From Candidatus Tectimicrobiota bacterium (GTDB lineage Bacteria; JACPUC01): a DNA stretch of 20,000 nucleotides. Below are positions 2,528 through 18,853 of the stretch, piece by piece. How positions within the stretch are numbered: position 1 is the stretch's first letter; the number at the start of each line of letters is the position of its first letter. The stretch lies in the NCBI GenBank assembly GCA_016192455.1, contig JACPUC010000027.1, positions 45,690 to 65,689 of the forward strand, read 5' to 3'. Both the position numbers and the translations under genes were made by a program. The notes beneath the pieces are model-generated. The model was not told the origin of the DNA and searched no databases. It saw only the letters and a list, made by a program, of their open reading frames with translations.

Positions 2528-2912
2528 TGCGCACCTCCCTCCGGGAACAGCAAGGACAGCCGCTTCCTCACCGGCGTTGCCACCCACCTCCACGCTGCGG
2601 CAGGCGAGCCGACCCGTTGCCCCCCCTGGCGAGAACTCCGCGCGGCTCAGGGGGCCACGCGGGGGAACTGACGCGGCGCCCGCACCCAGGCGGATGGCCG
2701 CGCACAGCGTGGGCCGCAGCCGCCCGTTCGAGCGCTTGCCGGCGTCTCCTCAGTTGTTCTTCGGGAACGGCCTGCTGGGCGCGAAGGAAGCTACGATACG
2801 CCATTGGAGTAAGGAGCTTCTTTCACGGCGCGAGAGGCTTGGGCGTCCCTCGCGGCAGGCGCCCACGGCCAATTTGAACACACCGGCCAAGTGGATTTTG
2901 ACAGATCATTTG

Positions 2913-2936
2913 ATGTGAAACCATGACATATGTCAA
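2913..2936. promoter_or_regulatory. Conserved operator/promoter box 1: palindrome TGACATATGTCA at 2924-2935; TTGACA on the minus strand faces the A-subunit gene
   Basis: ATGTGAAACCATGACATATGTCAA matches the reverse complement of 9253-9276 at 19 of 24 positions; it lies in an AT-rich patch of a divergent intergenic region. Confidence 0.7.
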
Positions 2937-3009
2937 TTTCTAGTCCGCGGGACTGGTCTAAGATAGTAGATCTAGGTCAAAGTTTGGGGAGAACTCGGGA
3001 GGTGCGGTG

Positions 3010-4242
3010 ATGAACACGACCAAGGTGATGCGTGCTCTCTTACTCGTCTCTTTTGCCGCGGTGGTCGCCCTGTCACTCGCCATGCCGGGGATTGGCGGAT
3101 CGCCGGCAGAAGCACAGCAGAAGCCGCCGATCAAGATCGGTGTCCTCTATGGGCTGACGGGAGTCTACGCCTTCCCGTCGAAACATGGGGTCCAGGGGGC
3201 GGCGCTGGCCTTCGAGGAGGCGAACTACCAGGTGGCCGGGCGGAAGATCGAGACCATCGTCGAGGACGACCAATCGCCCCAGGTGGCGGTGGGAGTGACC
3301 AAGGCGCGCAAGCTGGTTGAGAAAGACCGCGTGCACGCCGTCATGGGGATCATCTGGAGCCCCACCGGCGTGGCGGTGAGCGACTACATGAAGACGGTGG
3401 AGGTGCCGCTCGTCCTCACCGAGGCGGCCGCCCGCATCATCACCCAGGAGAAGCGCCACCCCTACGTCTTCCGCACCTCGTTCGCCAGCGGTCAGATGAC
3501 GCTGCCGTTCTCGGCGTACGTCTGCAAGAACCTGGGGTACAAGCGCATCGTGACGTTCGCCTTCGACAGCGTCTTCGGGCGGGAGCAGGCGGACTACGTG
3601 GCGCAAGGCTGCGAGCAAGGCGGCGGCAAGGTGATCAAGCAGCTCTTCGCCCCGGTGCGCACGCCGGATATGGCCCCCTACCTGGCGCAGATCCAGGCCG
3701 AGAACCCCGATGCCGTATGGGCCCTCTGGAGCGGCATCGCGGCCATCCAGTTCCTGCGCCAGTACAAGGAGTTCGGCCTGAAAGGGAAATACCCCTTGCT
3801 GACCTTCGGCAGCCTCTCCGGTGAGGACGTCCTGGCTCAGGTTCCCGACGCCGCCGAAGGGATGATCAGCTACTACTTCTATACCACCGCCTACGATGCA
3901 CCGGAAAACAAGGCGTTCGTCGAGGCGTATACGAAGAAGTACAATATGCCGCCGGCAGTCTATGCGGGCCAAGGGTACCTGACGGCGAAGGTGATCCTGG
4001 CGGCGCTTGAAGCGATCAAGGGCAACGTGGAGGACAAGGCGGCCTTCCTCGCGGCGTTGCGCAACGTCTCCTTCGAGCGCGGCATCCGCGGCCCGTGGCG
4101 CTTCGACGCCTTCCAGAACGCCGTCTCCGACGTCTACGTCTTCAAAGTCGAGCGGGGCGCGGACGGCAAGGTGGGCCACAAGATCATCCACGTCCTGAAG
4201 AACGCCGAGCAGTACTGGCCGCAGGGCAAGCCGCAGCGGTAG
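3010..4242 (+). CDS. ABC transporter substrate-binding protein, branched-chain amino acid (Liv/HAAT) class, copy 1
   Basis: Signal peptide ending ...AEA-QQ; PIKIG, GRKIETIVEDD, YVFRTSF, PDAVW motifs; GGGAGG RBS; alternative GTG start at 3007. Confidence 0.93.
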   Translation: MNTTKVMRALLLVSFAAVVALSLAMPGIGGSPAEAQQKPPIKIGVLYGLTGVYAFPSKHGVQGAALAFEEANYQVAGRKIETIVEDDQSPQVAVGVTKARKLVEKDRVHAVMGIIWSPTGVAVSDYMKTVEVPLVLTEAAARIITQEKRHPYVFRTSFASGQMTLPFSAYVCKNLGYKRIVTFAFDSVFGREQADYVAQGCEQGGGKVIKQLFAPVRTPDMAPYLAQIQAENPDAVWALWSGIAAIQFLRQYKEFGLKGKYPLLTFGSLSGEDVLAQVPDAAEGMISYYFYTTAYDAPENKAFVEAYTKKYNMPPAVYAGQGYLTAKVILAALEAIKGNVEDKAAFLAALRNVSFERGIRGPWRFDAFQNAVSDVYVFKVERGADGKVGHKIIHVLKNAEQYWPQGKPQR

Positions 4243-4250
4243 CCGGCCGC

Positions 4251-4287
4251 GAGGCGGCGCGCCGAGGGATGGCGCCGGCGCGCCCTC
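4251..4287 (+). other. GC-rich stem-loop between the binding-protein and permease genes (possible mRNA-stabilising element)
   Basis: GAG(GC)GGCGCGCCG pairs with CGGCGCGCCCTC. Stem-loops are commonly found at this position in ABC operons. Confidence 0.45.
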
Positions 4288-4327
4288 CGCCGCCCTCCTC
4301 CGCCACCTCAGGGGTGAGCGCGCAACC

Positions 4328-5182
4328 ATGAGCTTCTGGTACCTGCAGGCGATCACCGGCTTGTCCTTCGCCATGCTCCTCTTCCTGCTGGCGGCGGGGC
4401 TGTCGCTCATCTTCGGGCTGATGCGCATCATCAACCTGGCGCATGGCGCGCTCTATCTGGTGGCGTCCTACCTCAGCCTCTCGGTCATGCGGGGGACCGG
4501 CAGCTTCCTCTTGGCGTTGCTGGTCGGCGCGGCCGCGGTCACCCTCATCGGCCTGTTCATGGAGCGCCGCTTCCTCAACCGTCTCTACCGGATGGAGCTG
4601 GCGCAGGTGCTCCTCACCTTCGGCTTCCTGTTCATCCTCAGCGATCTCACCCAATGGGTCTGGGGCGGCGAGCCGCAAATCATGCCCAAGCCGGCGCTCT
4701 TCGCCGGCTCCTTGCGCCTGGGTGAGATGATGTTCCCGATCTACCGGCTGCTGGTCATCGCGGTGGGCATCGTGGTGGCGGTGCTGCTGGGGCTCATCCA
4801 GCAGTACACCAGCCTGGGGGCGAAGGTGCGCGCCGGCGTCGATGACGCGGAGATGACCCGCGGGCTTGGGGTGGACCTGCCCCGCCTGTTCACCGGCGTC
4901 TTCGCCATGGGAGCCATGCTCGCCGGCGTGGGCGGCGTCATGGGGGGGCCGATCATCGGGGCCAACCTCGATGCCGCCTTCGAGATTCTCCTCTTCGCCT
5001 TCGTGGTGGTCATCATCGGCGGCATGGGCAGCCTGAAGGGCGCCTTCCTCGCCAGCCTCTTCGTGGGCCTCATCGACACCTTCGGCAAGGCGCTCTTCCC
5101 GGAATACTCCCTCTTCACCATCTTCGCCCCGATGGCGATCGTGCTGGCGATCCGCCCGACGGGCCTGTTTGGACGCACATGA
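4328..5182 (+). CDS. livH: Liv-type ABC transporter permease (LivH family)
   Basis: GLSLIFGLMRIINLAHG, IIGGMGS and C-terminal RPTGLFG motifs; hydrophobic throughout. Confidence 0.93.
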   Translation: MSFWYLQAITGLSFAMLLFLLAAGLSLIFGLMRIINLAHGALYLVASYLSLSVMRGTGSFLLALLVGAAAVTLIGLFMERRFLNRLYRMELAQVLLTFGFLFILSDLTQWVWGGEPQIMPKPALFAGSLRLGEMMFPIYRLLVIAVGIVVAVLLGLIQQYTSLGAKVRAGVDDAEMTRGLGVDLPRLFTGVFAMGAMLAGVGGVMGGPIIGANLDAAFEILLFAFVVVIIGGMGSLKGAFLASLFVGLIDTFGKALFPEYSLFTIFAPMAIVLAIRPTGLFGRT

Positions 5183-6126
5183 GGCAGCGAACGCGGCGCA
5201 CCGCCATGGCGCTCGGGGGGTTCCTGCTCCTGCTCCTCCTGCCGGCAGTGCTGCCCTCGTTCTACCTCGGCCTGGTGACGGAGGTCCTCATCTTCGGGCT
5301 CTTCGCCATGAGCCTAAACCTGCTGCTCGGCTACGGGGGGCTTCCCTCCCTCGGCCACGCCGCCTACTTCGGCGTTGCCGGCTACACCGTGGCGCTCCTC
5401 TCCTTCACGGTGACGCAGAACGGCTGGCTGCTGATCTTCCTTGGGTTGGCGATGGCCGGGGTGACGGCGGCCCTCTTCGGGCTGCTGGCCCTGCGCACCC
5501 GCGGCGACTACTTCCTCATGATCACCCTTGCCCTCGGCGAGGTGCTCTGGGGCCTTGCCTTCAAGCTGCGCAGCCTCACCCACGCCGAGGACGGCATCTC
5601 GGGCGTGGCCCGCCCGGTGCTCAACCTGCCATGGTCCTTCGAGGACGATGTGGCCTTCTACGTCTTCGTGCTCGTCAGCGTCACCCTCGCCACGCTGCTG
5701 CTCATCCTCATCATCGAATCACCCTTCGGCAAGGCGGTGGTGGGGGTGCGGGAAAACGAGGCGCGCCTGCAGGTCCTGGGGTACAATGTCTGGCTGTGCC
5801 GCTACCTCGCCTTCGTGCTTGCCGGGCTCTTCGGCGGGCTGGCCGGCATTCTCTTCATCTTCTACAACCGCTTCGTCAGCCCCGCCGACCTGAGTGTGAT
5901 CCTGTCGGCGAAGGCGCTGCTCATGGTCATCCTCGGCGGGGCCGGGACGCTGGCCGGGCCGATGATCGGCGCGGCGCTCCTGGTCTTCATCGAGAACGAG
6001 GTGAGCTCCCTCACCGAGCGCTGGCTGCTCATTCTCGGTCTGATCTACGTGGTCGTCGTGATGTTCATCCCCGCCGGGGTCTACGGCGGTCTGAAAGCAA
6101 AGCTGCAGCGGCGGAGCGCCGTGTGA
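5179..6126 (+). CDS. livM: Liv-type ABC transporter permease (LivM family)
   Basis: SLNLLLGYGGLPSLGHAAYFG, LRTRGDYFLMITLA, RENE and ILGGAGT motifs; ATGA overlap with livH. Confidence 0.93.
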   Translation: MRQRTRRTAMALGGFLLLLLLPAVLPSFYLGLVTEVLIFGLFAMSLNLLLGYGGLPSLGHAAYFGVAGYTVALLSFTVTQNGWLLIFLGLAMAGVTAALFGLLALRTRGDYFLMITLALGEVLWGLAFKLRSLTHAEDGISGVARPVLNLPWSFEDDVAFYVFVLVSVTLATLLLILIIESPFGKAVVGVRENEARLQVLGYNVWLCRYLAFVLAGLFGGLAGILFIFYNRFVSPADLSVILSAKALLMVILGGAGTLAGPMIGAALLVFIENEVSSLTERWLLILGLIYVVVVMFIPAGVYGGLKAKLQRRSAV

Positions 6127-6884
6127 ACGCCCTCGTGGTCGACCAGGTGTCAAGGCGGTTCGAAGGGCTGCAAGCCCTCAACAGGGTGAGCCTCACCGTG
6201 CAGGTGGGCGAACGGCGCGCCATCATCGGGCCCAACGGCGCCGGCAAGACGACGCTCTTCAACATCATCAACGGCACGCTGCGGCCGACGACGGGGCGCA
6301 TCCTGCTCTTCGACCGCGACGTGACCCGCCTCGCTCCCCATCGCCGCACCCACCTCGGGCTGGCCCGCACGTTCCAGATCAGCGCTCTGTTCCCGCGCTT
6401 GAGCGTCTATGAGAACGTGCGCCTGGCCGCGCAGGCGGCCACTGGCGGGCGCTACGCGATGCACCGACCGGCCGCCACCCTGGGCGCCATCCAGCGCCTC
6501 TGCGAGGATACCCTGAAGAAGTGGGACCTCTGGCACCTGCGGCGCGAGGCCGTCCGCACCCTCTCCTACGGTGATCAGCGGCGCATCGAGATCGTCCTCG
6601 CCTTGGCCACGAACCCGAGGCTCCTCCTCTTGGACGAGCCGACGGCGGGGTTGTCGCTCGCCGAGACGCAGCAGGTGAGCAGCATCATCCAGGCCCTGCA
6701 TCGCCAGCTCACCATCCTGCTCATCGAGCATGACATGGACGTGACGTTCGAGCTGGTCGACCAGGTCACGGTGTTGCATCTGGGCAACCTCCTGGCGGAT
6801 GGTCCCCAGGAGGAGGTCCGGCGCGATCCCCGGGTGGCCGAAATCTACCTGGGGTCGGCAACGGAGTGGGGGAAGCCGTGCTGA
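6123..6884 (+). CDS. livG: Liv-type ABC transporter ATP-binding protein (LivG family, 253 aa)
   Basis: Walker A GPNGAGKTT, ARTFQ, LSYGDQR, Walker B LLLLDEP, IEHD. Likely start is the GTG at 6123, a GTGA overlap with the livM stop. Confidence 0.92.
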   Translation: MNALVVDQVSRRFEGLQALNRVSLTVQVGERRAIIGPNGAGKTTLFNIINGTLRPTTGRILLFDRDVTRLAPHRRTHLGLARTFQISALFPRLSVYENVRLAAQAATGGRYAMHRPAATLGAIQRLCEDTLKKWDLWHLRREAVRTLSYGDQRRIEIVLALATNPRLLLLDEPTAGLSLAETQQVSSIIQALHRQLTILLIEHDMDVTFELVDQVTVLHLGNLLADGPQEEVRRDPRVAEIYLGSATEWGKPC

Positions 6885-7582
6885 GCGTGCAGGACATCCA
6901 CACCTACTACGGCGACAGCTACATCCTGCAGGGTGTCTCCCTGGAGATTCCCGAGGGCTGCGTGGTCTCGGTGCTGGGGCGCAACGGCGTGGGCAAGACG
7001 ACCCTGATCCGCTCGATCATCGGCTTCACCCCGCCGCGCAGAGGGCGCGTCCTGTTGCGGGGCCAAGAGATCACCCGGCTGCCGGCGCATAAGATCGCCC
7101 GCCTTGGGGTGGGATTGGTGCCGCAAGGCCGGCGCATCTTCGCCAGCCTCACCGTGCGGGAGAACCTGCAGGTGGCGCAGCGCGACCTCGAGGGTGGCGG
7201 CCGCCCCTGGGACTGGGAACGCGTCGCCGCGGCCTTCCCGCGTCTGCGGGAGCGCAGCCACCATCGGGGCAACAAACTGAGCGGCGGCGAGCAGCAGATG
7301 CTGACGACCGCCCGGGCGCTGATGGGCAACCCGCGGTTGCTGCTCATGGACGAGCCGAGCGAGGGGCTCGCCCCCCTCCTGGTGCGGAATCTGGGGGAGA
7401 TCATCGCCGACCTGAAACAGCATGGCCTCGCCATCCTCCTCGTCGAGCAGAATCTCCCCTTTGCCCTCGCCCTCTCCGACTACGTCTACGTCATGAGCAA
7501 GGGGGCCATCGTGCACCACGGCGCGGCCGCGGAGTTCCACCAGCACACCGAGATCAAGGCGCGCTACCTGGGCATCGGCTAG
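6878..7582 (+). CDS. livF: Liv-type ABC transporter ATP-binding protein (LivF family)
   Basis: GRNGVGKTT, VPQGRRIF, LSGGEQQM, MDEPSEGLAP, VEQN and C-terminal YLG motifs; start at GTG 6878 (or 6866). Confidence 0.92.
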   Translation: MLSVQDIHTYYGDSYILQGVSLEIPEGCVVSVLGRNGVGKTTLIRSIIGFTPPRRGRVLLRGQEITRLPAHKIARLGVGLVPQGRRIFASLTVRENLQVAQRDLEGGGRPWDWERVAAAFPRLRERSHHRGNKLSGGEQQMLTTARALMGNPRLLLMDEPSEGLAPLLVRNLGEIIADLKQHGLAILLVEQNLPFALALSDYVYVMSKGAIVHHGAAAEFHQHTEIKARYLGIG

Positions 7583-7852: not shown

Positions 7853-9082
7853 TCACTCCTTGGGTTTGCCGGAAGGCCAGTATTGTTCAAGATTCTTCAT
7901 GACGTGGATGATCTCATTGCGCACCTTGCCGTCGGACTGCCGCGTCGGCTTGAAGACGTAGAGGTCCGAAACGGCATTCTGATAAGCGTCGAAGCGCCAC
8001 GGTCCTCGATTACTGTCTTTCATTTGGACCTTCCGCAATGCCTGCAGGAAGGCCGGCTTGTCCTCCACGTTGCCGTTAATGCTCTGGAGGGCCATGAGAA
8101 TAATCTTGGCCGTCAGGTATCCGGAAGCGGCATAGATGGCGGGAGGCATGCCGTACTTCTGCGTGTAGGCCTGGATAAAGCGCTTGTTCTCGGGGGAATC
8201 ATAGGAGGTGGTGTAGCGTTCGTAGCTGAGCATCCCCTCCGCCGCCTCCGGCACTTGCGCGAGCACCTCATCGGTTGACAGGTCTCCGGCACCCAGGAGG
8301 GGTATCTTCCCCTTCAAGCCGAATTCCTTGTACTGGGTCAGGAAGCGGATGGCGTTCTGGCCGCTCCACAGCGCCCACACGGCGTCGGGATTGAGCGCTT
8401 GAATCTGCGTCAGGTATGGCGCCATGTCGGGCGTGCGCACCGGGGCGAAGATTTGCTCGATCACCTTGCCGCCGCCTTGCTCGCAGCCTTGCGCAAAGGA
8501 GGCGGCCTCATCGCGCCCATAGACGCTGTCGAAAGAGAAGGCGACCGCCCGCTTGTAGCCGAACTTCTTGCAGGCGTACTCCCCGAACGGCATCGTCATC
8601 TGGCCGCTGGCGAAAGAGGTGCGGAAGACGTAGGCATGCCGCTTCTCCTGGGTGATGATGCGCGCGGCGGACTCCGTCAGGATCAACGGCGTCTCCACCG
8701 TCTTCATGTACTCGCTCACCGCCACGCCGGTGGGGCTCCAGATGATCCCCATGATGGCGTGCACGCGGTCTTTCTCAACCAGCTTGCGCGCCTTCGTCAC
8801 CCCCACTGCGACCTGGGGCGATTGGTCGTCCTCGACGATGGTCTCGATCTTCCGCCCGGCAACCTCGTTGTTTGCCTCCTCGAAGGCAAGCTTCGCCCCC
8901 TGCACCCCGTGCTTGGAGGGGAAGGCGTAGACGCCGGTAAGCCCATAGAGCATGCCAATCTTGATCGGCGCTTTTTGCGCCCAGGCCGGCTGGCTTTGGC
9001 CGACCAGGCCGCCGAGAAGCAGCGTGCAGAACGCTGCGAGGAAGCAGCGCCCGCCCAAACTCCCCACTCCCCTGTTCACCAT
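7853..9082 (-). CDS. ABC transporter substrate-binding protein, Liv/HAAT class, copy 2 (409 aa)
   Basis: Start moved to ATG 9082, after GAGGGAGG; signal peptide ending ...AWA-QK; near-identical to 3010-4242 over the N-terminal part. Confidence 0.93.
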   Translation of the reverse strand: MVNRGVGSLGGRCFLAAFCTLLLGGLVGQSQPAWAQKAPIKIGMLYGLTGVYAFPSKHGVQGAKLAFEEANNEVAGRKIETIVEDDQSPQVAVGVTKARKLVEKDRVHAIMGIIWSPTGVAVSEYMKTVETPLILTESAARIITQEKRHAYVFRTSFASGQMTMPFGEYACKKFGYKRAVAFSFDSVYGRDEAASFAQGCEQGGGKVIEQIFAPVRTPDMAPYLTQIQALNPDAVWALWSGQNAIRFLTQYKEFGLKGKIPLLGAGDLSTDEVLAQVPEAAEGMLSYERYTTSYDSPENKRFIQAYTQKYGMPPAIYAASGYLTAKIILMALQSINGNVEDKPAFLQALRKVQMKDSNRGPWRFDAYQNAVSDLYVFKPTRQSDGKVRNEIIHVMKNLEQYWPSGKPKE

Positions 9083-9252
9083 CGCCGTTCCTCCCTCACG
9101 TCGGTGCCTGGAAAGGCCCCCACGCCTGTGAGTGCAAGGGTCGCCCTGCAAAGCGCTGCTTCCCGTCTCGCCGCAGCGCCGGCACGTCCCAGGCGTGGTG
9201 CAAAGCTGAACCGCGGTGAAAGCCACGGTAAACTGAAGCAGGGACTTTTTCC

Positions 9253-9276
9253 TTGACAATTGTCATATTTTCGCAT
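9253..9276. promoter_or_regulatory. Conserved operator/promoter box 2: palindrome TGACAATTGTCA at 9254-9265; TTGACA on the plus strand faces B-subunit copy 2
   Basis: TTGACAATTGTCATATTTTCGCAT is an inverted 19/24 match to 2913-2936. Confidence 0.7.
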
Positions 9277-9404
9277 GCACTTTGGGATGACACTATGGGT
9301 CAAAAGGGAGGGCCGGAAACGCTCGACCAGGGAGCGAGGGAGAGCCGTGGTCTTCCCGGCCGGGGGCGGCGGCCGGCTGGCGGGGGGCCGAGGCGCGGGG
9401 ACGA

Positions 9405-9554
9405 GCATCCGCCCCGCGCGCGGGGAAGCTTCAACAGCACCCTGCGTCAATGTTCCACGTGGAACGCATCCGCCCCGCGCGCGGGGAAGCTTCGGGGGAG
9501 CGCAGGCTTCCAGCCTGCCGGCCTTCGAATCCGCTTCACGCACGCGGAGGCGCC
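9405..9554. repeat. CRISPR-like mini-array: 28-bp repeat GCATCCGCCCCGCGCGCGGGGAAGCTTC with 33-bp spacers
   Basis: Identical copies at 9405-9432 and 9466-9493; degenerate copy (19/28) at 9527-9554 in exact 61-bp register; internal palindrome CCCCGCGCGCGGGG. The repeat is certain; a CRISPR origin is not, and there are no cas genes in the window. Confidence 0.7.
9451..9466. promoter_or_regulatory. parS: parS-like centromere site TGTTCCACGTGGAACG
   Basis: 15/16 match to the parS palindrome TGTTCCACGTGGAACA; the 14-bp core GTTCCACGTGGAAC is perfect; intergenic. Confidence 0.7.
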
Positions 9555-9625
9555 GACCGGCAGGTGAAGCCTTACGGCGGGAAAGAACTTCATCGACCGC
9601 GCAGGCAAGGAGTAAGGAGCAACTC

Positions 9626-11395
9626 ATGGCCGCAACCGGGGTGAATCCCATTACCTTGTCCACGGTGTGGCACACCATGCAAACGGTCTGTCGCGAGATG
9701 CGGCACGTCATGGACCGCACCGCCCAGAACTACCTCATGGGGCAGCTCCACGACATCTCCGTCGGCATCTGGGACGCGCAGGGGCGCACCCTGGCCGTGC
9801 CGGTGGGTTTGCCGTCGCAGTTCCTCGGTTCCTCGTTTGCGGTGCGGGACATGGTGGGGAAGTTCAAGGGCAACCTGAACCCCGGCGACATCATCCTCAC
9901 CAACGATCCCTACCACGGTGGGCACAACTGCCATCTCCCCGACTGGGGATTCTTCCGGCCCATCTTCTACGACGGGGAGCTGATGTTCGTCACCCTGGCG
10001 CGCGCCCACCAGGAGGATACCGGCGGCTCCTACCCGGGGGGATACTTCCCGAACGGCTACGACATCCATGCCGAGGGGCTCTGCATCCCGCCCCTGAAGG
10101 TGTACGATCGGGGGGTGGAGAAGACGGAGCTGTTCGAGCTGATCTGGAACAACGTGCGCTGGCCGCAAGGGGTGCGCGTTGACAACTACTCGATGATCGC
10201 TTCGACGGCGTGGTGTGAGAAACGGCTCGTCGCCATGCTGAAGAAGTACGGCAAGGAAACGGTGCGGGCTTGCCTCGACGAGATGATTCGGCGCACGGAG
10301 CAGGCGGTGCGCAAGGAGATTCGCGCCATCCCCAACGGCACGTACTACGGCGAAGCGGCCACCGACGACGATGGGACGACCCTCGATGAGCCGGTGTGGG
10401 TGCGCGTGCAGGTGACCGTGAAGGGCGACCGCATAAAGCTGGACTTCTCGAAGAGCGACAAGCAGCGCAAGGGGTTCATTAACAGCGTCTACGCCGCCAC
10501 ATACGGGAACGCCGTCGCCGGCGCGGTGCTCGTCTTCGATCCAGCCCTAGCCGAGTACCACAACGAAGGGACGCTGCGCCCCATGGAGGTCATCGCGCCG
10601 CTGGGGTTGGTGGTGAACTGCGAGTACCCGGCCACCGTCGGCGCCTCGCCGGTGAACGTCGGCACCCAGGTCATGGAGGCCGTGGTCATGGCGCTCTCCC
10701 AGGCCCTTCCCGAACGAGCCGCCGCCGCCTGGGGCAAGCACCGCGGCGACTACGTCTTCGGCATCGATCCGCGCAGCGGCGAACGCTACGTGCGCACCTC
10801 CTTCGACTATGACGGCAGCGCCGGGGCGGTGAGCGGCTTCGACGGCTACCAGGGCATCTCCTCCATAGCGGCCCTGGGCGCCGTGACCCGCGGCAACATC
10901 GAGGAGATGGAAATCCGCATCCCCTTCTTCATGCACAAGCTCGAGTTCGCCACCGATCTGCAGGGGGCGGGGCGCTGGCGCGGAGGGCCGGGCGTCTACT
11001 GGGAGGCGCAGAACCAGGGGAGCGACTCCGGCATGGCCACCGGCAGCTCCGACGGCGATACGACGTTCGGTCCCGGAGCGCTGGGCGGCGAGCCCTGTCC
11101 CCCCTGCCGTACTTACATCCAGCGGGGCGAGCAGCGCATGCGGGTCAAACCGCACCGCCTCGTGCAGCTCAAGAACAGCGACGTGGTCATCAAGGTCAGC
11201 AGCGGCGGCGGCGGGGTCGGCAACCCCAAAGAGCGCGACCCGGAACTGGTGGCCAAGGATGTGCGCAACGAACTCGTCTCGCTGCAAGCCGCCCGCAGGA
11301 CTTATAAAGTGGCGCTCGACCCGAAAACGCTTGCCGTGGACGCGCAGGCGACGAAACGCCTGCGCAGCCGTAGCGCCAGGGGTGCGAAGCGATGA
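9626..11395 (+). CDS. Hydantoinase B/oxoprolinase family protein (copy 2, 589 aa)
   Basis: Start moved to ATG 9626 after AAGGAG; motifs NDPYHGG..HLPD, RAHQEDTGG, EGLCIPP, GAGRWRGG, GGGGVGNP.ERD. Confidence 0.95.
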   Translation: MAATGVNPITLSTVWHTMQTVCREMRHVMDRTAQNYLMGQLHDISVGIWDAQGRTLAVPVGLPSQFLGSSFAVRDMVGKFKGNLNPGDIILTNDPYHGGHNCHLPDWGFFRPIFYDGELMFVTLARAHQEDTGGSYPGGYFPNGYDIHAEGLCIPPLKVYDRGVEKTELFELIWNNVRWPQGVRVDNYSMIASTAWCEKRLVAMLKKYGKETVRACLDEMIRRTEQAVRKEIRAIPNGTYYGEAATDDDGTTLDEPVWVRVQVTVKGDRIKLDFSKSDKQRKGFINSVYAATYGNAVAGAVLVFDPALAEYHNEGTLRPMEVIAPLGLVVNCEYPATVGASPVNVGTQVMEAVVMALSQALPERAAAAWGKHRGDYVFGIDPRSGERYVRTSFDYDGSAGAVSGFDGYQGISSIAALGAVTRGNIEEMEIRIPFFMHKLEFATDLQGAGRWRGGPGVYWEAQNQGSDSGMATGSSDGDTTFGPGALGGEPCPPCRTYIQRGEQRMRVKPHRLVQLKNSDVVIKVSSGGGGVGNPKERDPELVAKDVRNELVSLQAARRTYKVALDPKTLAVDAQATKRLRSRSARGAKR

Positions 11396-11564: not shown

Positions 11565-13958
11565 ATGGAACAGGCGGAGCGCACCATCCATCGAGTGCAA
11601 AGCTACTGCGCCACCTCGTGTTCGCACTGCGGGGTGATCTGCGAAGTCGAGGACGGGAAACTGACCAAGGTGCTGACCGATCCCGACCATCCGAACGGCG
11701 GCATCTGCATCAAAGGGAAGGCGGGGCCGGAGGTCATCTATCATCCCCAGCGTCTCCTGCAGCCGCTGAAACGCACCACCCCGAAGGGGAGCAAGGACCC
11801 CGGCTGGCAACGCATTAGCTGGGACGAGGCGCTGGACACCATGGCGAGCACGTTGCGCGAGCTGCGCGAACGCCATGGCGCGGAATCGGTGGTCTTCTGC
11901 CGCCCGGCCCCCGGCGGCTCCAGCGCCTGCGATTACGACCACTTCGTGATGCGCTTCGCCAACGCCTTCGGCAGCCCCAACACCGTGGCGACGACGCACG
12001 TCTGCAACTGGCACAAGGACGTGGGATCGAGCTACACCTACGGCATCGGCATTCCGCCCGCCGACTTCCGGCGCGCCGCCTGCATCCTCATCTGGGGGCA
12101 TAACCCCACCGCGAGCTGGCATATCCATGCCCAGCGCATCAGCCGCGCCAAGGCGCGCGGCGCCAAGCTGCTCGTCATCGATCCGCTGCGCAACCGGCTC
12201 GCCGCCAAGGCCGACCTGTGGCTTCAGGTGCGCCCCGGCAGCGACGGCGCCCTGGCCCTCAGCCTGATCGCCACGCTGATCGAGGAAGAGCTCTACGACG
12301 CCGCATTCGTCAGGAGCTGGACCAACGCCCCGTTCCTGGTGCGCCCGGATACCGGCGCCCTCCTGCGCGCGGCCGATCTCCAGGAGGATGGCGGAGAGGG
12401 CTACGTCGTGTGGGATGAGAGCCGCGGCGCCCCGGTCAGCCATCTCCGCCTGCGCGACCATGCCGTCCGCCCGGCGCTGCGGGGCACCTACCACGTCAGC
12501 CTGGCGGACGGGCGCACCCTGAGCTGCCGGCCGGCGTTCGAGGGGCTGGCCGAGCTGGCCGCCGCCTACACGCCGGAACGCGCCGCAGCCATCCATTGGG
12601 TGCCGGCCCAGCAGGTGCGCGCCGCGGCTCGCATGTTCACCCAGAACGGCCCCTCCTGCTACTACACGTACAATGGGCTGGAGCAACATACGAATGCGAT
12701 GCAGACGAATCGAGCCGTCTGCATCTTCTATGCACTCAGCGGCTTTTTTGACGCGCCGGGCGGCAATGTGATCTTCCCGACGGTGCCGAGCAAGAACCTG
12801 CAAGGCACGGAGTTCCTGCCGGCCGAGCAAGCGCGGCGGCGCCTGGGAATCGAGAAACGTCCACTCGGGCCGCCGTCTACCGGGGCGGTCCAGGCTTACG
12901 AGGTCTACACCGCGATCCTGACCGGGAAACCTTATCCGGTGAAAGGGTTCGTGAGTTTCGGCGGCAATATCGTGCAGGCGAATGGGGACAGCCAGCGGGG
13001 TTACGAAGCCCTCAGACAACTCGATTTCTATGCCCAGGTGGAGCTGTTCGAGACCCCCACGTCCCGCCTCGCCGACCTTCTGCTCCCCGCCGCAACCCAT
13101 TGGGAAGCGGGCACGCTGAGGGTGGGCTTCGGTCAGGATGAAACCACGTCGGGCTATGTGCAGTACCGTCAGCCTGTCATCGAACCGCTGGGCGAGAGTC
13201 GCCCCGACGTGCGGATCATCTTCGATCTGGCGCAGCGGATGTGCCTGGGGGAGAAGTTTTGGCGCGGCGACATCGAGGCGGCCTGGCGCGAGCAGCTCAG
13301 CCCCTCCGGTTTGAACCTGGAAGAGCTGCGGCGCCATCCGGGCGGCGTCAATGTGCCGCTGCCGGTGCGCTTCCGCAAGTACCGCGGCGCCGACGAGCCG
13401 TCCGCCACGGCGCCGGCCTTCAACACCCCCACCGGCAAGATCGAGATTTACTCCGAGCGCTTCCTCGCCCACGGCTTCGCGCCCTTGCCGGTGTACGAGG
13501 AGCCCTTCTACAGCGAGGCGCGCAACCCTGATCTGGCGCGGCAGTACCCGCACATCCTCATCACCGTCAAGGTCCTGCAATTCTGTCACGGCCAGCACCG
13601 CGCCATGCCAAGCCTGCGCGGGGCGGTGCCCTATCCCACCATCGAGGTTCATCCCCAAACCGCGGCGGCTCTGCGGATTGCGGACGGCGAGTGGGTGGCG
13701 GTGGAAACCTTCCACGGCTCCGTGCGCCTGAAGGCGAGCCTCAGCACCCGCCTCGATCCACGCGTCGTCGTGGCGCAGCATGGCTGGTGGCAGGAATGCC
13801 CCGGCCTTGACTTGCCGGGCTTCGATCCGTTCAGCTCCAGCGGCGCCAATATCAACCTGGTCTACACCAATGACCAGGTCGACCCCATCACCGGCTCGGT
13901 GCCGTTCAAATCGTTCCGCTGCCGCTTGCGCAAGCTCGCGGCCGACGCGGCGGAGTAA
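11565..13958 (+). CDS. Molybdopterin (bis-PGD) oxidoreductase catalytic subunit, DMSO reductase superfamily, probably acetylene-hydratase-like clade (797 aa)
   Basis: ATG 11565 after GGGAGAG; N-terminal Fe-S motif C...C..CG...HP.GGICIKG; RISWDEALD, IWGHNP, VIDP, VRPGSD, ADLLLPAATHWE, FNTPTGKIE motifs; C-terminal MGD-binding domain (HGWW); no Tat signal. Confidence 0.92.
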   Translation: MEQAERTIHRVQSYCATSCSHCGVICEVEDGKLTKVLTDPDHPNGGICIKGKAGPEVIYHPQRLLQPLKRTTPKGSKDPGWQRISWDEALDTMASTLRELRERHGAESVVFCRPAPGGSSACDYDHFVMRFANAFGSPNTVATTHVCNWHKDVGSSYTYGIGIPPADFRRAACILIWGHNPTASWHIHAQRISRAKARGAKLLVIDPLRNRLAAKADLWLQVRPGSDGALALSLIATLIEEELYDAAFVRSWTNAPFLVRPDTGALLRAADLQEDGGEGYVVWDESRGAPVSHLRLRDHAVRPALRGTYHVSLADGRTLSCRPAFEGLAELAAAYTPERAAAIHWVPAQQVRAAARMFTQNGPSCYYTYNGLEQHTNAMQTNRAVCIFYALSGFFDAPGGNVIFPTVPSKNLQGTEFLPAEQARRRLGIEKRPLGPPSTGAVQAYEVYTAILTGKPYPVKGFVSFGGNIVQANGDSQRGYEALRQLDFYAQVELFETPTSRLADLLLPAATHWEAGTLRVGFGQDETTSGYVQYRQPVIEPLGESRPDVRIIFDLAQRMCLGEKFWRGDIEAAWREQLSPSGLNLEELRRHPGGVNVPLPVRFRKYRGADEPSATAPAFNTPTGKIEIYSERFLAHGFAPLPVYEEPFYSEARNPDLARQYPHILITVKVLQFCHGQHRAMPSLRGAVPYPTIEVHPQTAAALRIADGEWVAVETFHGSVRLKASLSTRLDPRVVVAQHGWWQECPGLDLPGFDPFSSSGANINLVYTNDQVDPITGSVPFKSFRCRLRKLAADAAE

Positions 13959-14732: not shown

Positions 14733-15119
14733 ATGGCTGACCAACCAGAACAACAACCTTCTCGGCCTCCGCAGCCGTTGCCGCCACTGCAACCGCCAAT
14801 CCGGCAGCCGCCACTTTTCTATAGCAACGTGGCACGCGTTATGCATACTGAATATGATGTGTTCATAGATTTTGCGACACGCTTACCGGATACACCAGAC
14901 TTTGCAGCCATAAGTGCCAGGATTGTGATGAGTCCTCAGCATACAAAGGCGCTCCTGAAGGCTCTTTTTGAGCATCTAAAGAAGTACGAAGAATCCTACG
15001 GAAAGATTCCATTGCCTGGAGATTTTGTAATGGAAAAGTCTATTAAGGAGTTCTTTAACAACGTTGAGCGCAGTAAACCGGGTGAAGGAGAGACCAATGC
15101 AGGGGTACAAGGTCCGTGA
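14733..15119 (+). CDS. DUF3467 family protein
   Basis: YSNVARVMHTEYDVFIDF...ARIVMSPQHTKALLKAL...KYEESYGKI matches the DUF3467 pattern as I recall it; Pro/Gln-rich N-terminus. Confidence 0.78.
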   Translation: MADQPEQQPSRPPQPLPPLQPPIRQPPLFYSNVARVMHTEYDVFIDFATRLPDTPDFAAISARIVMSPQHTKALLKALFEHLKKYEESYGKIPLPGDFVMEKSIKEFFNNVERSKPGEGETNAGVQGP

Positions 15120-15324
15120 AGTATCAGCGGATGAAGTAATTTCTAAGGACCTGTTTGAAGTGTGGCCACGCATGGGTGCCTATGTTCATATCACGCACGC
15201 GCGAGATGTTACCTTTTACGTACAGGAGAATGAGGACGAAGACGACCTGCGCGCTCACCGTCTAGCGATGCAGGAAGAGGGGGGGCGTCCTTGGGGCGAT
15301 GTGAAACGAGAGCTGGAACTTTAG
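15097..15324 (+). CDS. Putative type II antitoxin (75 aa), possibly a divergent Phd/YefM N-terminus
   Basis: ATG 15097 after AAGGAG; acidic C-terminus EDEDDLRA...PWGDVKRELEL typical of RelE/ParE-neutralising tails; lies directly upstream of the toxin. Confidence 0.75.
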   Translation: MQGYKVREVSADEVISKDLFEVWPRMGAYVHITHARDVTFYVQENEDEDDLRAHRLAMQEEGGRPWGDVKRELEL

Positions 15325-15330
15325 ACCCCC

Positions 15331-15588
15331 TTGCCATATCAGGTGATTCTCAAGCCCGGCGCTCAACGCGACCTTAAGCGCCTCGACAATCCAGTGCGCA
15401 AAAGGGTTGCGGTTGCTTTAGATCGGCTCCTGGAAAATCCTCGACACCATGGAGTCACACCCCTGGTTGAGGGGGAAAATGTGTATCGCGTCAGGGTTGG
15501 AGAATGGCGTATCATTTTTGAAATTGCTGATAACGAATCACTCGTAACAGTCTCTCGGATCCGACACCGCCGCGACGCCTATCGTTAG
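15331..15588 (+). CDS. relE: Type II toxin, RelE/StbE family mRNA interferase
   Basis: Y.V.....A.RDLKRL...R.R.......L..NPR...YRVRVGEWRIIFEI...V.V.RI.HRRDAYR; TTG start 6 bp after the antitoxin stop. Confidence 0.92.
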   Translation: MPYQVILKPGAQRDLKRLDNPVRKRVAVALDRLLENPRHHGVTPLVEGENVYRVRVGEWRIIFEIADNESLVTVSRIRHRRDAYR

Positions 15589-16798: not shown

Positions 16799-18853
16799 AT
16801 GCCCTTGGACATGAGCTTAAACGATAGAGTGAAGCCGGAACCGCCGACGCCCGAGGAGTTGGCCTGGGCCGCGAAGCTGCTGCCGGGCGACTACGAAATC
16901 TACAGCGAGAAGCTGAACATGATCTGCGTGGAGGCGAGGGAGATCTTCGCGCGCATGGGGGTCTCCGCGCTCATCCACGCGGGCGACATGGTGGTGGCCA
17001 TGTACAGCGCCCAGGGTGACCAGATCACGGCGGTGGCGGGCACCTTCCTCCATTCGGTGACCGGCATCGTGCCGATCAAGTTCATTCTCAAGCACTGGTT
17101 GACCAATGAGTCCGTCGGCGTGCGCGAAGGCGACATCTTCTACTGCAACGACGCCCACTACGGCGGCGTGCACAACGCCGATCAGCTCGCCATCATGCCG
17201 GTCTTCTTTGAAGGGGAGTTGATCGCCTGGACCGTCGGGGCGGCGCATCAAACCGAGACCGGCGCCACCGAGCCGGGAGGCATGCCCGTCAGCGCCCGCA
17301 GCCGCTACGACGAGGGCATGAGCCTGTCGCCGATCAAGATCGCCCAGAACTACCGCATGAAGGACGACCTCGTCGAGATGTGCGCCAACATGATCTCGCG
17401 GGCGCCGCGCATGCAGGTGCTCGACATGAAGGCGCGGGCCGCGGCGGCCGACCGCATGCGGGTGCGCCTTCAGGAGCTGGCGCGCGCCAAGGGCGCCGGG
17501 TTCCTCAAGGGGCTGTTCCGTAGGATGCTGCAGCATACCGAGGAGGCGACGCGGGCCCGCATCGCAAGCTGGAACGATGGCGACTACCGCCACGTCGTCT
17601 TCACGGACACCACCGGCCTGCGCGACGCCCTGGGGCGCATCTACCTGACGACGCGCAAGCGCGGCGATCAACTGGTCTTCGACTTCACCGGCACCTCGCC
17701 GGAGAACGAGGGGTCGTACCACGCCTTCCTCCATGTGGTGCGGGCCGCGGCGGCCTGCTACTTCTACCAGCACCCGTTCCATGACTTCCCGATCTCCTCC
17801 GGCCTCTACGCCCCCATGGAGTTCATCGCCCCCCAGGGGTGCATGCTGAACGCCAGCCCCGAGGCCGCCATCTGCAACTCTCCCATCATCCTCATGAACA
17901 TCTGGCAGCCCCTCTGCATCACCTTCTCGAAGATGATGTTCGACAGCCCGATGCGGCATCTCTGCACCGGCTATGTCAACGCGGCCGGCAGCGGCGGCGT
18001 CATGAGCGGCGTCAACCAGTGGGGCGTGCGGCAGACCGACATGCTCAGCTATCCCCTCAACTCCGCCGGCGCCGGCGCCCGGCACGACATGGACGGCGTG
18101 GATAACTACGGCTTCCCCTATGCCCCCACCGGCAAGGGCGCCGAGGTGGAAGACTGCGAGAACGAGCAGGGACACCTGCACCTCTTCCAGCGCCGTCTGC
18201 GCGATTACCTCGGCTTCGGCAAATATCGCGGCGGCATCGGCCTGACGGCCGCCTACACGCCGCACCTGGTGCCGCGCATCGCCTACATGAACTTCGCCAA
18301 GGAATCGCGCTTCCCGGCGCACTCCGGCCTCTTCGGCGGCTACCCCTGCTCCACCCACCCGGGCATTCAAGTCAACGGCAGCAATTTCCACGACAAGATG
18401 GCGCGCGGCGACGACGACCTCCCCATGAACGTCATGGAGCTCATGAAGGAGCGCCGGCTGCAAGGAACGTACGTGGTGGAGAGCAAGACGCGCAGCGTGC
18501 GCGTGCTGGAGAAGGATGACGTGTTCGTGCTCGTCGTCCACGGCGGCGGCGGGTACGGTGACGTGCTCGAGCGCGATCCCCAGGCGGTGGTGGAAGACCT
18601 GCGCAACGGCATCATCTCGCATCGCGTCGCGGAGCAGATTTTCCAGGTGGCGTACGACCACGCCACCCTGCAGGTGGATGAGCCGGCCACCGCCGAGCGA
18701 CGGCGGGCCGCGCGCCGCGAACGACTGCGCCGCGCCCTCCCCTATGAGAGCTTCATCGCCGCTTGGTCCACGAAGAAGCCGAGGGATGAGGTTCTCGTCG
18801 TCTATGGCTCCTGGCCGGATGCTCGCCCGACGCGCGAAATTATCAGGATGTGA
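16799..18853 (+). CDS. Hydantoinase B/oxoprolinase family protein, acetophenone/acetone carboxylase metal-binding-subunit-like (684 aa)
   Basis: ATG 16799 after AAGGAG; GTFLH, GDIFYCNDAHYGGVHNADQ, AHQTETGATEPGGMPVSA, NQWG, GKYRGG, GGGGYGD.LERDP, YGSWPDA. From memory, these resemble acetophenone carboxylase Apc4/ApcD more than the other two B subunits here. Confidence 0.88.
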   Translation: MPLDMSLNDRVKPEPPTPEELAWAAKLLPGDYEIYSEKLNMICVEAREIFARMGVSALIHAGDMVVAMYSAQGDQITAVAGTFLHSVTGIVPIKFILKHWLTNESVGVREGDIFYCNDAHYGGVHNADQLAIMPVFFEGELIAWTVGAAHQTETGATEPGGMPVSARSRYDEGMSLSPIKIAQNYRMKDDLVEMCANMISRAPRMQVLDMKARAAAADRMRVRLQELARAKGAGFLKGLFRRMLQHTEEATRARIASWNDGDYRHVVFTDTTGLRDALGRIYLTTRKRGDQLVFDFTGTSPENEGSYHAFLHVVRAAAACYFYQHPFHDFPISSGLYAPMEFIAPQGCMLNASPEAAICNSPIILMNIWQPLCITFSKMMFDSPMRHLCTGYVNAAGSGGVMSGVNQWGVRQTDMLSYPLNSAGAGARHDMDGVDNYGFPYAPTGKGAEVEDCENEQGHLHLFQRRLRDYLGFGKYRGGIGLTAAYTPHLVPRIAYMNFAKESRFPAHSGLFGGYPCSTHPGIQVNGSNFHDKMARGDDDLPMNVMELMKERRLQGTYVVESKTRSVRVLEKDDVFVLVVHGGGGYGDVLERDPQAVVEDLRNGIISHRVAEQIFQVAYDHATLQVDEPATAERRRAARRERLRRALPYESFIAAWSTKKPRDEVLVVYGSWPDARPTREIIRM

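Follow-up and report, generated by a model that had tools for sequence, protein, structure and literature searches.

A possible relic of a type I-E CRISPR array, with a parS-type sequence in one spacer, upstream of a hydantoinase-B-family gene of Candidatus Tectimicrobiota

CRISPR arrays are not confined to intact immune loci. Orphan and degenerate arrays have been documented, the type I-F remnants of E. coli among them (PMC8616872), and stand-alone repeat-like units have been reported to occur beside cas3 in 25-29% of I-E, I-D and I-F1 loci and to be depleted elsewhere in genomes (bioRxiv 10.1101/2023.03.03.530964). In addition, regulatory mini-arrays with degenerate repeats have been established for types I-B, I-E and V-A, and RNAs resembling CRISPR RNA (crRNA) repress the promoters of other defence systems (bioRxiv 10.1101/2023.03.10.532045, 10.1101/2023.03.03.530964, 10.1101/2024.12.27.630466). 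These CreA, CreR and crlRNA units are described by Shmakov et al. and in the Li-lab preprints as lying inside cas loci, usually with two repeats, and as carrying a spacer that can pair in part with a promoter close by, beside a protospacer adjacent motif (PAM). The element considered here occupies positions 9405-9554 of a 20-kb stretch of DNA from a Candidatus Tectimicrobiota bacterium (hereafter the window; 20,000 nt of the 65.7-kb contig JACPUC010000027.1, assembly GCA_016192455.1), where it precedes hyuB2, a gene of the hydantoinase B/oxoprolinase family. It comprises three 28-nt repeats, two identical and one degenerate, separated by two unrelated 33-nt spacers, the first of which contains nearly all of a canonical parS sequence, and it may represent a degenerate and probably defunct mini-array of type I-E descent in the leader of hyuB2, a reading that we favour tentatively and that a cluster of hairpins without any CRISPR origin rivals closely in likelihood.

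Layout of the element

Repeat finding in the window identified a single three-copy family of 28-nt repeats on the + strand, of which R1 (9405-9432) and R2 (9466-9493) are identical at all 28 positions, while R3 (9527-9554) agrees with them at 19 of 28 (68%). The start-to-start distances are 61 and 61 nt, so that R3 stands exactly in register and the whole element reads 28+33+28+33+28. Each of the identical repeats is built as a 14-nt perfect palindrome (9412-9425 in R1) between two 7-nt flanks and ends in AAGCTTC. The spacers, S1 (9433-9465; 33 nt, 54.5% GC) and S2 (9494-9526; 33 nt, 75.8% GC), also on the + strand, share just 9 of 33 positions and are regarded as unrelated. Two identical repeats, a third copy in register and a pair of unrelated spacers had been noticed before from the letters of the DNA (the sequence-only reading), and this description was confirmed throughout.

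Identity of at least 19/28 to the repeat is reached at five of the 39,946 positions on both strands of the window, namely R1 and R2, each counted twice for the two strands, and R3, which is thereby the best non-self match, and it is reached by 5 of 200,000 random 28-mers of local composition. Given this rarity, R3 is taken to be a real diverged copy in exact register. No further copy of R1/R2 was found in the 20 kb at up to three mismatches (none of 200 shuffles gave a match), and no periodic copies were found beyond the array at -61, -122, +183 and so on. Tandem Repeats Finder made no period-61 call over the array, as is expected since the spacers are unrelated; a simple tandem duplication of a 61-bp unit is excluded on the same comparison, because it would have copied the spacers as well as the repeats.

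The 3' part of S1 is a 14-bp perfect palindrome (9452-9465), and the 16-mer that extends it across the S1/R2 junction (9451-9466, the last base being the first of R2) is identical at 16 of 16 positions to the Myxococcus xanthus parS consensus, as printed in the report in which ParB bound that consensus in a gel-shift assay (PMC3899335). The same 16-mer is one mismatch away from a perfect palindrome and differs by one end base from the perfect parS2/3 of P. aeruginosa, as given in PMC4368675. It is the sole parS-type site in the window, and 7 of 200 shuffles contained a match at up to three mismatches. The resemblance to parS that the sequence-only reading had noted is thus an exact one for spacer 1. 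In the portions of the literature that were available, no published description was found of a parS-bearing spacer or of this repeat.

Comparison with type I-E arrays

For comparison, 13 plasmid-borne I-E loci from several phyla, among them Streptomyces, Thermus, Deinococcus, E. coli, Acetobacter and Roseomonas, were gathered from the Cas1e of a Streptomyces plasmid I-E operon, and 15 repeat types extracted from them were used to build an alignment, a covariance model and a weight matrix. In these loci 436 of 470 real units measure 61 nt, that is, 33-nt spacers in a 28-nt repeat convention, so that the 61-bp period ascribed to type I-E at the outset was well founded and the 28+33=61 unit of the present element equals the modal I-E unit exactly. 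All 15 real repeats follow a layout of 5 nt, a 16-nt stem-loop and an 8-nt handle, with C6-9, G18-21, T23, C27 and C28 invariant. The window repeat has a CCCCGCG/CGCGGGG stem followed by A, and this stem ends 7 nt before the repeat boundary, as it does in the 15 real repeats. The best match of the covariance model in the window is R2 on the + strand (13.8 bits), R1 scoring 11.3 bits on that strand and the - strand 9.3 bits. Similarly, the ungapped weight matrix ranks 9405 and 9466 (+) first among the 39,946 window positions.

Were the array CRISPR-like, the + strand, which is also that of hyuB2, would be the sense strand, since the model scores 13.8 against 9.3 bits and since R3 is then leader-distal. 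Real I-E loci show degenerate terminal repeats, and here R1 equals R2 while the 3' copy is the degenerate one. The reverse-complement orientation proposed from sequence inspection is corrected on these two grounds. The element thus resembles I-E arrays in its unit, its unique spacers, its CCCC...GGGG stem followed by A and its degenerate last repeat. Four features would hardly arise together by chance, and it is on their account that CRISPR ancestry is favoured: two intervals of exactly 61 nt around unrelated spacers, a unit whose size and frame are those of type I-E, a stem of the I-E type, and a degenerate repeat at the same end as in real arrays. We infer from them that the three repeats and two spacers, around which the window has neither cas genes nor a leader, descend from a type I-E-like array and have most probably lost their immune function. 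The array would be transcribed within a long hyuB2 leader, its GC-rich stem-loops merely adding structure to that RNA, and spacer 1 would carry by chance, or would have been captured from DNA with, a canonical parS that ParB could bind.

Several lines of evidence weigh against I-E descent, beginning with the repeat itself. The hairpin measures 14 nt as compared to 16 nt in all 15 real repeats, and the handle departs from them at T23 and C27, two of its three invariant columns, in keeping with the earlier remark that the repeat is without the usual loop and termini. True I-E repeats score 31-42 bits against the 13.8 bits of the array repeat; the wrong strand of true repeats, which matches by its hairpin only, scores 14-17 bits, and chance matches in the coding DNA of the window reach 13.4 and 12.2 bits. 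The lead of the array in the weight matrix is slim, at 4.3 bits versus 3.9 for the next match. Rfam returned no CRISPR-DR family match even at E ≤ 10. The surroundings and the spacers are also unlike those of an I-E locus: the 100 nt upstream of R1 (9305-9404, +), which would be the leader position of a + strand array, are purine-rich and 80% GC as compared to 64% for the window, no cas or defence gene was detected by Pfam or PADLOC in the 9.4 kb that precede the array or the 10.4 kb that follow it, and both spacers contain a perfect stem of at least 7 bp, a feature of 6 of 470 real I-E spacers, none of which (0/470) holds a parS-like site. Beyond the window, a 21-nt core of the repeat was part of no array when 185,579 species were scanned at one genome per species, and the best plasmid match described below is not significant on its own (E = 0.7 per piece). 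Finally, arrays as small as this are described in PMC10333696 as mostly false positives of CRISPR finders.

Several of these points can be set in context. Of 20 stretches listed as lying upstream of arrays in the 13 real loci, 19 are GC-poorer than their own locus, the exception being sequence from within an array. The lack of cas genes noted in the sequence-only reading was borne out by Pfam and PADLOC alike. The 13.4-bit chance match lies at 6061-6084 (-), within an ABC ATPase coding region, and has a CGGGGATGAAC end, which indicates that the I-E motif is readily imitated by GC-rich DNA. As judged from its sequence, the repeat is a GC-rich hairpin of the I-E sort, correctly framed, and offers nothing beyond that; its membership of the I-E family is not established, the scores being at the level of chance GC-rich hairpins. 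Known orphan arrays and the small arrays of 'evidence level 1' are likewise isolated, short and without adjacent cas genes, and differ in that the known orphan arrays retain a repeat of recognisable subtype.

At gathering scores Rfam gave 0 matches, and a known RNA family was rejected as an explanation, the five weak hairpin matches at E ≤ 10 being to three microRNA families, a long non-coding RNA region and Scr3202. The 21-nt core had two single, non-periodic matches, in Qipengyuania and in a Trueperaceae metagenome-assembled genome (MAG), both apparently in coding DNA. A blastn search of 7.3 Gb of plasmid sequence with R1-S1-R2 found one site, present in 13 Streptomyces plasmids, that was matched by both repeats (88.5%). 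In the record examined this site falls where cas3 meets casA in a type I-E operon that has large period-61 arrays on its flanks. The solitary unit at that site scores 26.4 bits as an I-E repeat, is outside the training set of the model, and agrees with the window repeat at all but two aligned bases apart from a 2-nt loop gap. In the plasmid of Streptomyces sp. 604F (NZ_CP026489.1) the solitary repeat-like unit lies at 12005-12033 of the extracted locus (L003), on the strand that does not encode the cas genes, with a long GC hairpin after it; it looks like a stand-alone repeat-like element of the kind reported beside cas3 in I-E loci.

The spacers gave no indication of a mobile source. Neither S1 nor S2 had a significant match in 50,697 phage records, of which 19 were hit with a best E of 0.1, mostly through the parS palindrome, and neither had a significant protospacer match in 72,556 plasmid records. 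An origin of the spacers from mobile elements therefore finds no support here, which is weak evidence, as most real spacers are also without database matches. A match of the S2-R3 segment to Sinorhizobium/Rhizobium plasmids (E = 4e-3, 96.7% over approximately 30 nt) falls within a 311-aa open reading frame (ORF) and was attributed to chance. This best database match of the segment covers 9520-9548, where S2 passes into R3, and pairs it with 1501-1530 of one extracted locus (L016) and 1501-1534 of another (L017), inside a proline/alanine-rich ORF.

Hairpins, the parS-type site and competing explanations

Nearly as probable as I-E ancestry is that GC-rich stem-loop modules have clustered locally in the leader or promoter region of hyuB2 to form the element, whether elements of the repetitive extragenic palindromic (REP) kind, protein-binding palindromes or RNA structure, in which one module happens to occur twice exactly and once diverged and the I-E geometry is coincidental. 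Such a cluster would act in cis, through mRNA stability, as a transcriptional roadblock, or by binding ParB together with another dimeric protein. The distribution of palindromes speaks for it, as 4 of the 16 perfect hairpins with a stem of at least 7 bp in the 20-kb window fall within the 107 nt of 9412-9518, and two of the four are in the spacers (the one in S2 having a 7-bp stem and a 3-nt loop at 9502-9518). So do two imperfect inverted repeats that tie the spacers to the flanks: I1 (9514-9564), with 21-nt arms that are 76% complementary, runs from the last part of S2 through R3 into the next 10 nt downstream, and the outer I2 (9371-9523; arms 9371-9389 and 9505-9523, 79%), which is also a blastn match of the region to its own reverse complement, brackets R1-S1-R2. 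The + strand RNA of 9380-9640 folds better than all 200 shuffles (z = -2.93), whereas the - strand fold is not exceptional (z = -1.15, with 19 of 200 shuffles as good), and 9494-9570 is predicted to fold at -39.9 kcal/mol. A position 71 nt before the start codon and 139 nt past an operator-like palindrome would suit a leader element, and the I-E scores that are no higher than those of a GC-rich hairpin, as well as the missing leader and cas genes, also speak for it.

This account requires three coincidences, however, namely the 61/61 spacing, the I-E unit size and a 3' boundary 7 nt after the stem, and the 28-nt identity beside unrelated spacers deprives it of simple tandem duplication as a route. 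REP elements typically occur in many dispersed copies, usually as inverted pairs at variable spacing. The present unit is, like REP elements and bacterial interspersed mosaic elements (BIMEs), a short GC-rich palindromic intergenic sequence in more than one copy, and differs from them in that its three copies are direct and evenly spaced at 61 nt, with no other copy at up to three mismatches in the remaining 19.8 kb of the window and none, as a repeat of the 21-nt core, in the genomes of the 185,579 species. The hairpin of R3 was considered as a sign of selection and set aside, as 20% of shuffles fold equally well, a result that also tells against this account.

A third explanation, which we consider improbable, is that the array is functional and served by cas genes outside the window, either as a remote immune array or as a regulatory mini-array of the CreA/CreR/crlRNA type, the guides of which would direct Cascade to partially matching chromosomal targets. 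The identity of R1 and R2 would fit recent use or constraint, the window covers less than a third of its contig (20 of 65.7 kb), and mini-arrays with degenerate repeats are, as outlined above, an established phenomenon that shares with the present element a very small size and non-canonical repeats. The element differs from them in having three repeats, no cas locus in the window and no local target found there, and the described mini-arrays lie inside cas loci, with repeat-like sequences depleted elsewhere. No seed-proximal partial match of S1 or S2 to any promoter of the window was found, which does not support the regulatory mini-array raised in the sequence-only reading in a version with a local target; the longest matches of the spacers elsewhere in the window are of 10 nt, lie in coding DNA, are off the spacer 5' end and occur about as often as by chance. 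The absence of phage or plasmid protospacers and of a leader also argues against function. The 14-nt hairpin would be short for recognition of the Cas6e type, and the handle is without T23 and C27.

Least probable among the rivals, and in our view very unlikely, is a chromosomal centromere site, in which a real parS would be bound by ParB and the 28-bp repeats would be accessories, serving as boundaries or as sites of a second protein. The identity of 9451-9466 to the M. xanthus consensus, its closeness to P. aeruginosa parS2/3 and its uniqueness in the window support this proposal, and the 16-bp sequence is of the type found at chromosomal parS sites of ParABS systems; against it, the site is single and putative and sits between two direct repeats that are asymmetric about it (centres 40 and 21 nt away), Pfam searches of the window gave no parA or parB and no further gene typical of an origin region, and R3 and the 61-nt register are left unexplained.

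The evidence does not separate the two options offered by the sequence-only reading, a decayed or repurposed CRISPR unit and an undescribed repeat scaffold holding protein-binding sites. A bolder proposal, to which we assign very little probability, is that of a CRISPR-derived repeat scaffold domesticated away from any cas locus. In the leader of a metabolic gene, its I-E-type hairpins would frame palindromes recognised by protein or RNA, and one of these palindromes would be a parS that works. In one version the transcript would yield a crRNA-like guide with parS, thereby linking a Cascade-type complex to partition sites; in another the repeats would be boundaries for ParB loading beside a promoter. 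Such a scaffold is compatible with the identity of R1 and R2, with a unit that has exactly the I-E size and with the full match to the parS consensus.

Should the I-E ancestry that we tentatively prefer be correct, the element would show a mini-array remote from cas genes in an uncultured lineage that has been little studied, with a shortened repeat stem and with a canonical centromere sequence as one of its spacers, and would bear on array decay and on the reuse of repeat units outside immunity. Should it not be CRISPR-derived, it would be a cautionary false positive, one in which the I-E unit size is matched exactly and the terminal repeat is degenerate, and false positives of this kind matter when small orphan arrays are called in metagenomes rich in GC. 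On both readings the putative parS is a testable marker of the position of the contig relative to the replication origin.

Genomic neighbourhood

The window encodes two inverted paralogous units. The array sits in the 543-bp intergenic region (9083-9625) between SBP2 (7853-9082, -; probable start 9082), which encodes a periplasmic substrate-binding protein, and the divergent hyuB2 (9626-11395, +), which has a duplicated AAGGAG before its ATG, has a Candidatus Tectomicrobia MAG as the source of the closest named relative of its product (82% identity), and is followed downstream by a molybdopterin oxidoreductase gene. The other unit comprises hyuB1 (3-434, -), which runs to the window start, hyuA (467-2527, -) and, divergent from these, a Liv-type ABC transporter operon (3011-7582, +). 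A third hydantoinase-B-family gene lies at 16799-18853 (+), so that the window holds three genes of this family and one hyuA. The hyuB2 product is 83% identical to that of hyuB1 (P0002), hyuB2 is without an adjacent hyuA, and the two substrate-binding protein genes of the window are paralogous; on these grounds it is suggested that the unit for uptake and hydantoinase was partially duplicated in inverted orientation.

In accordance with the earlier observation, no counterpart of the array was found in the mirror intergenic region (2529-3010), and homology with that region was rejected as an origin, the alignment placing the array opposite gaps. A remnant of a deleted hyuA paralogue was rejected likewise, as a tblastn search of 9083-9625 with HyuA gave a best E of 0.10. 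The two divergent intergenic regions that mirror one another have one TGACA-NN-TGTCA palindrome apiece, at 2924-2935 and at 9254-9265, in the AT-richer part that adjoins the substrate-binding protein gene, the second being the 12-bp operator-like palindrome already mentioned, in an AT-richer promoter region. These two are the only matches to this motif in the window, and at least two matches were obtained in 6 of 200 shuffles; they are probably operators of one shared regulator. Between this promoter region and R1, the 9305-9404 stretch contains several GGGAG/GGAG motifs, and Tandem Repeats Finder reported a 13-nt period at 9379-9405.

Scans of 8900-9800 gave no sigma-70-like site and one terminator-like site, the latter at chance level. 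The two ORFs that overlap the array, 9253-9567 (+) and 9076-9720 (-), had no Pfam match, and a unit of 61 nt, not being a multiple of 3, bears against coding across the array. Elsewhere in the window, an 85-aa ORF at 15331-15588 (+) matches the ParE toxin family (Pfam E = 8.7e-14), and the 86-aa ORF just upstream of it (15064-15324, +) could be an antitoxin, the pair (15064-15588) being a likely type II toxin-antitoxin system between metabolic genes.

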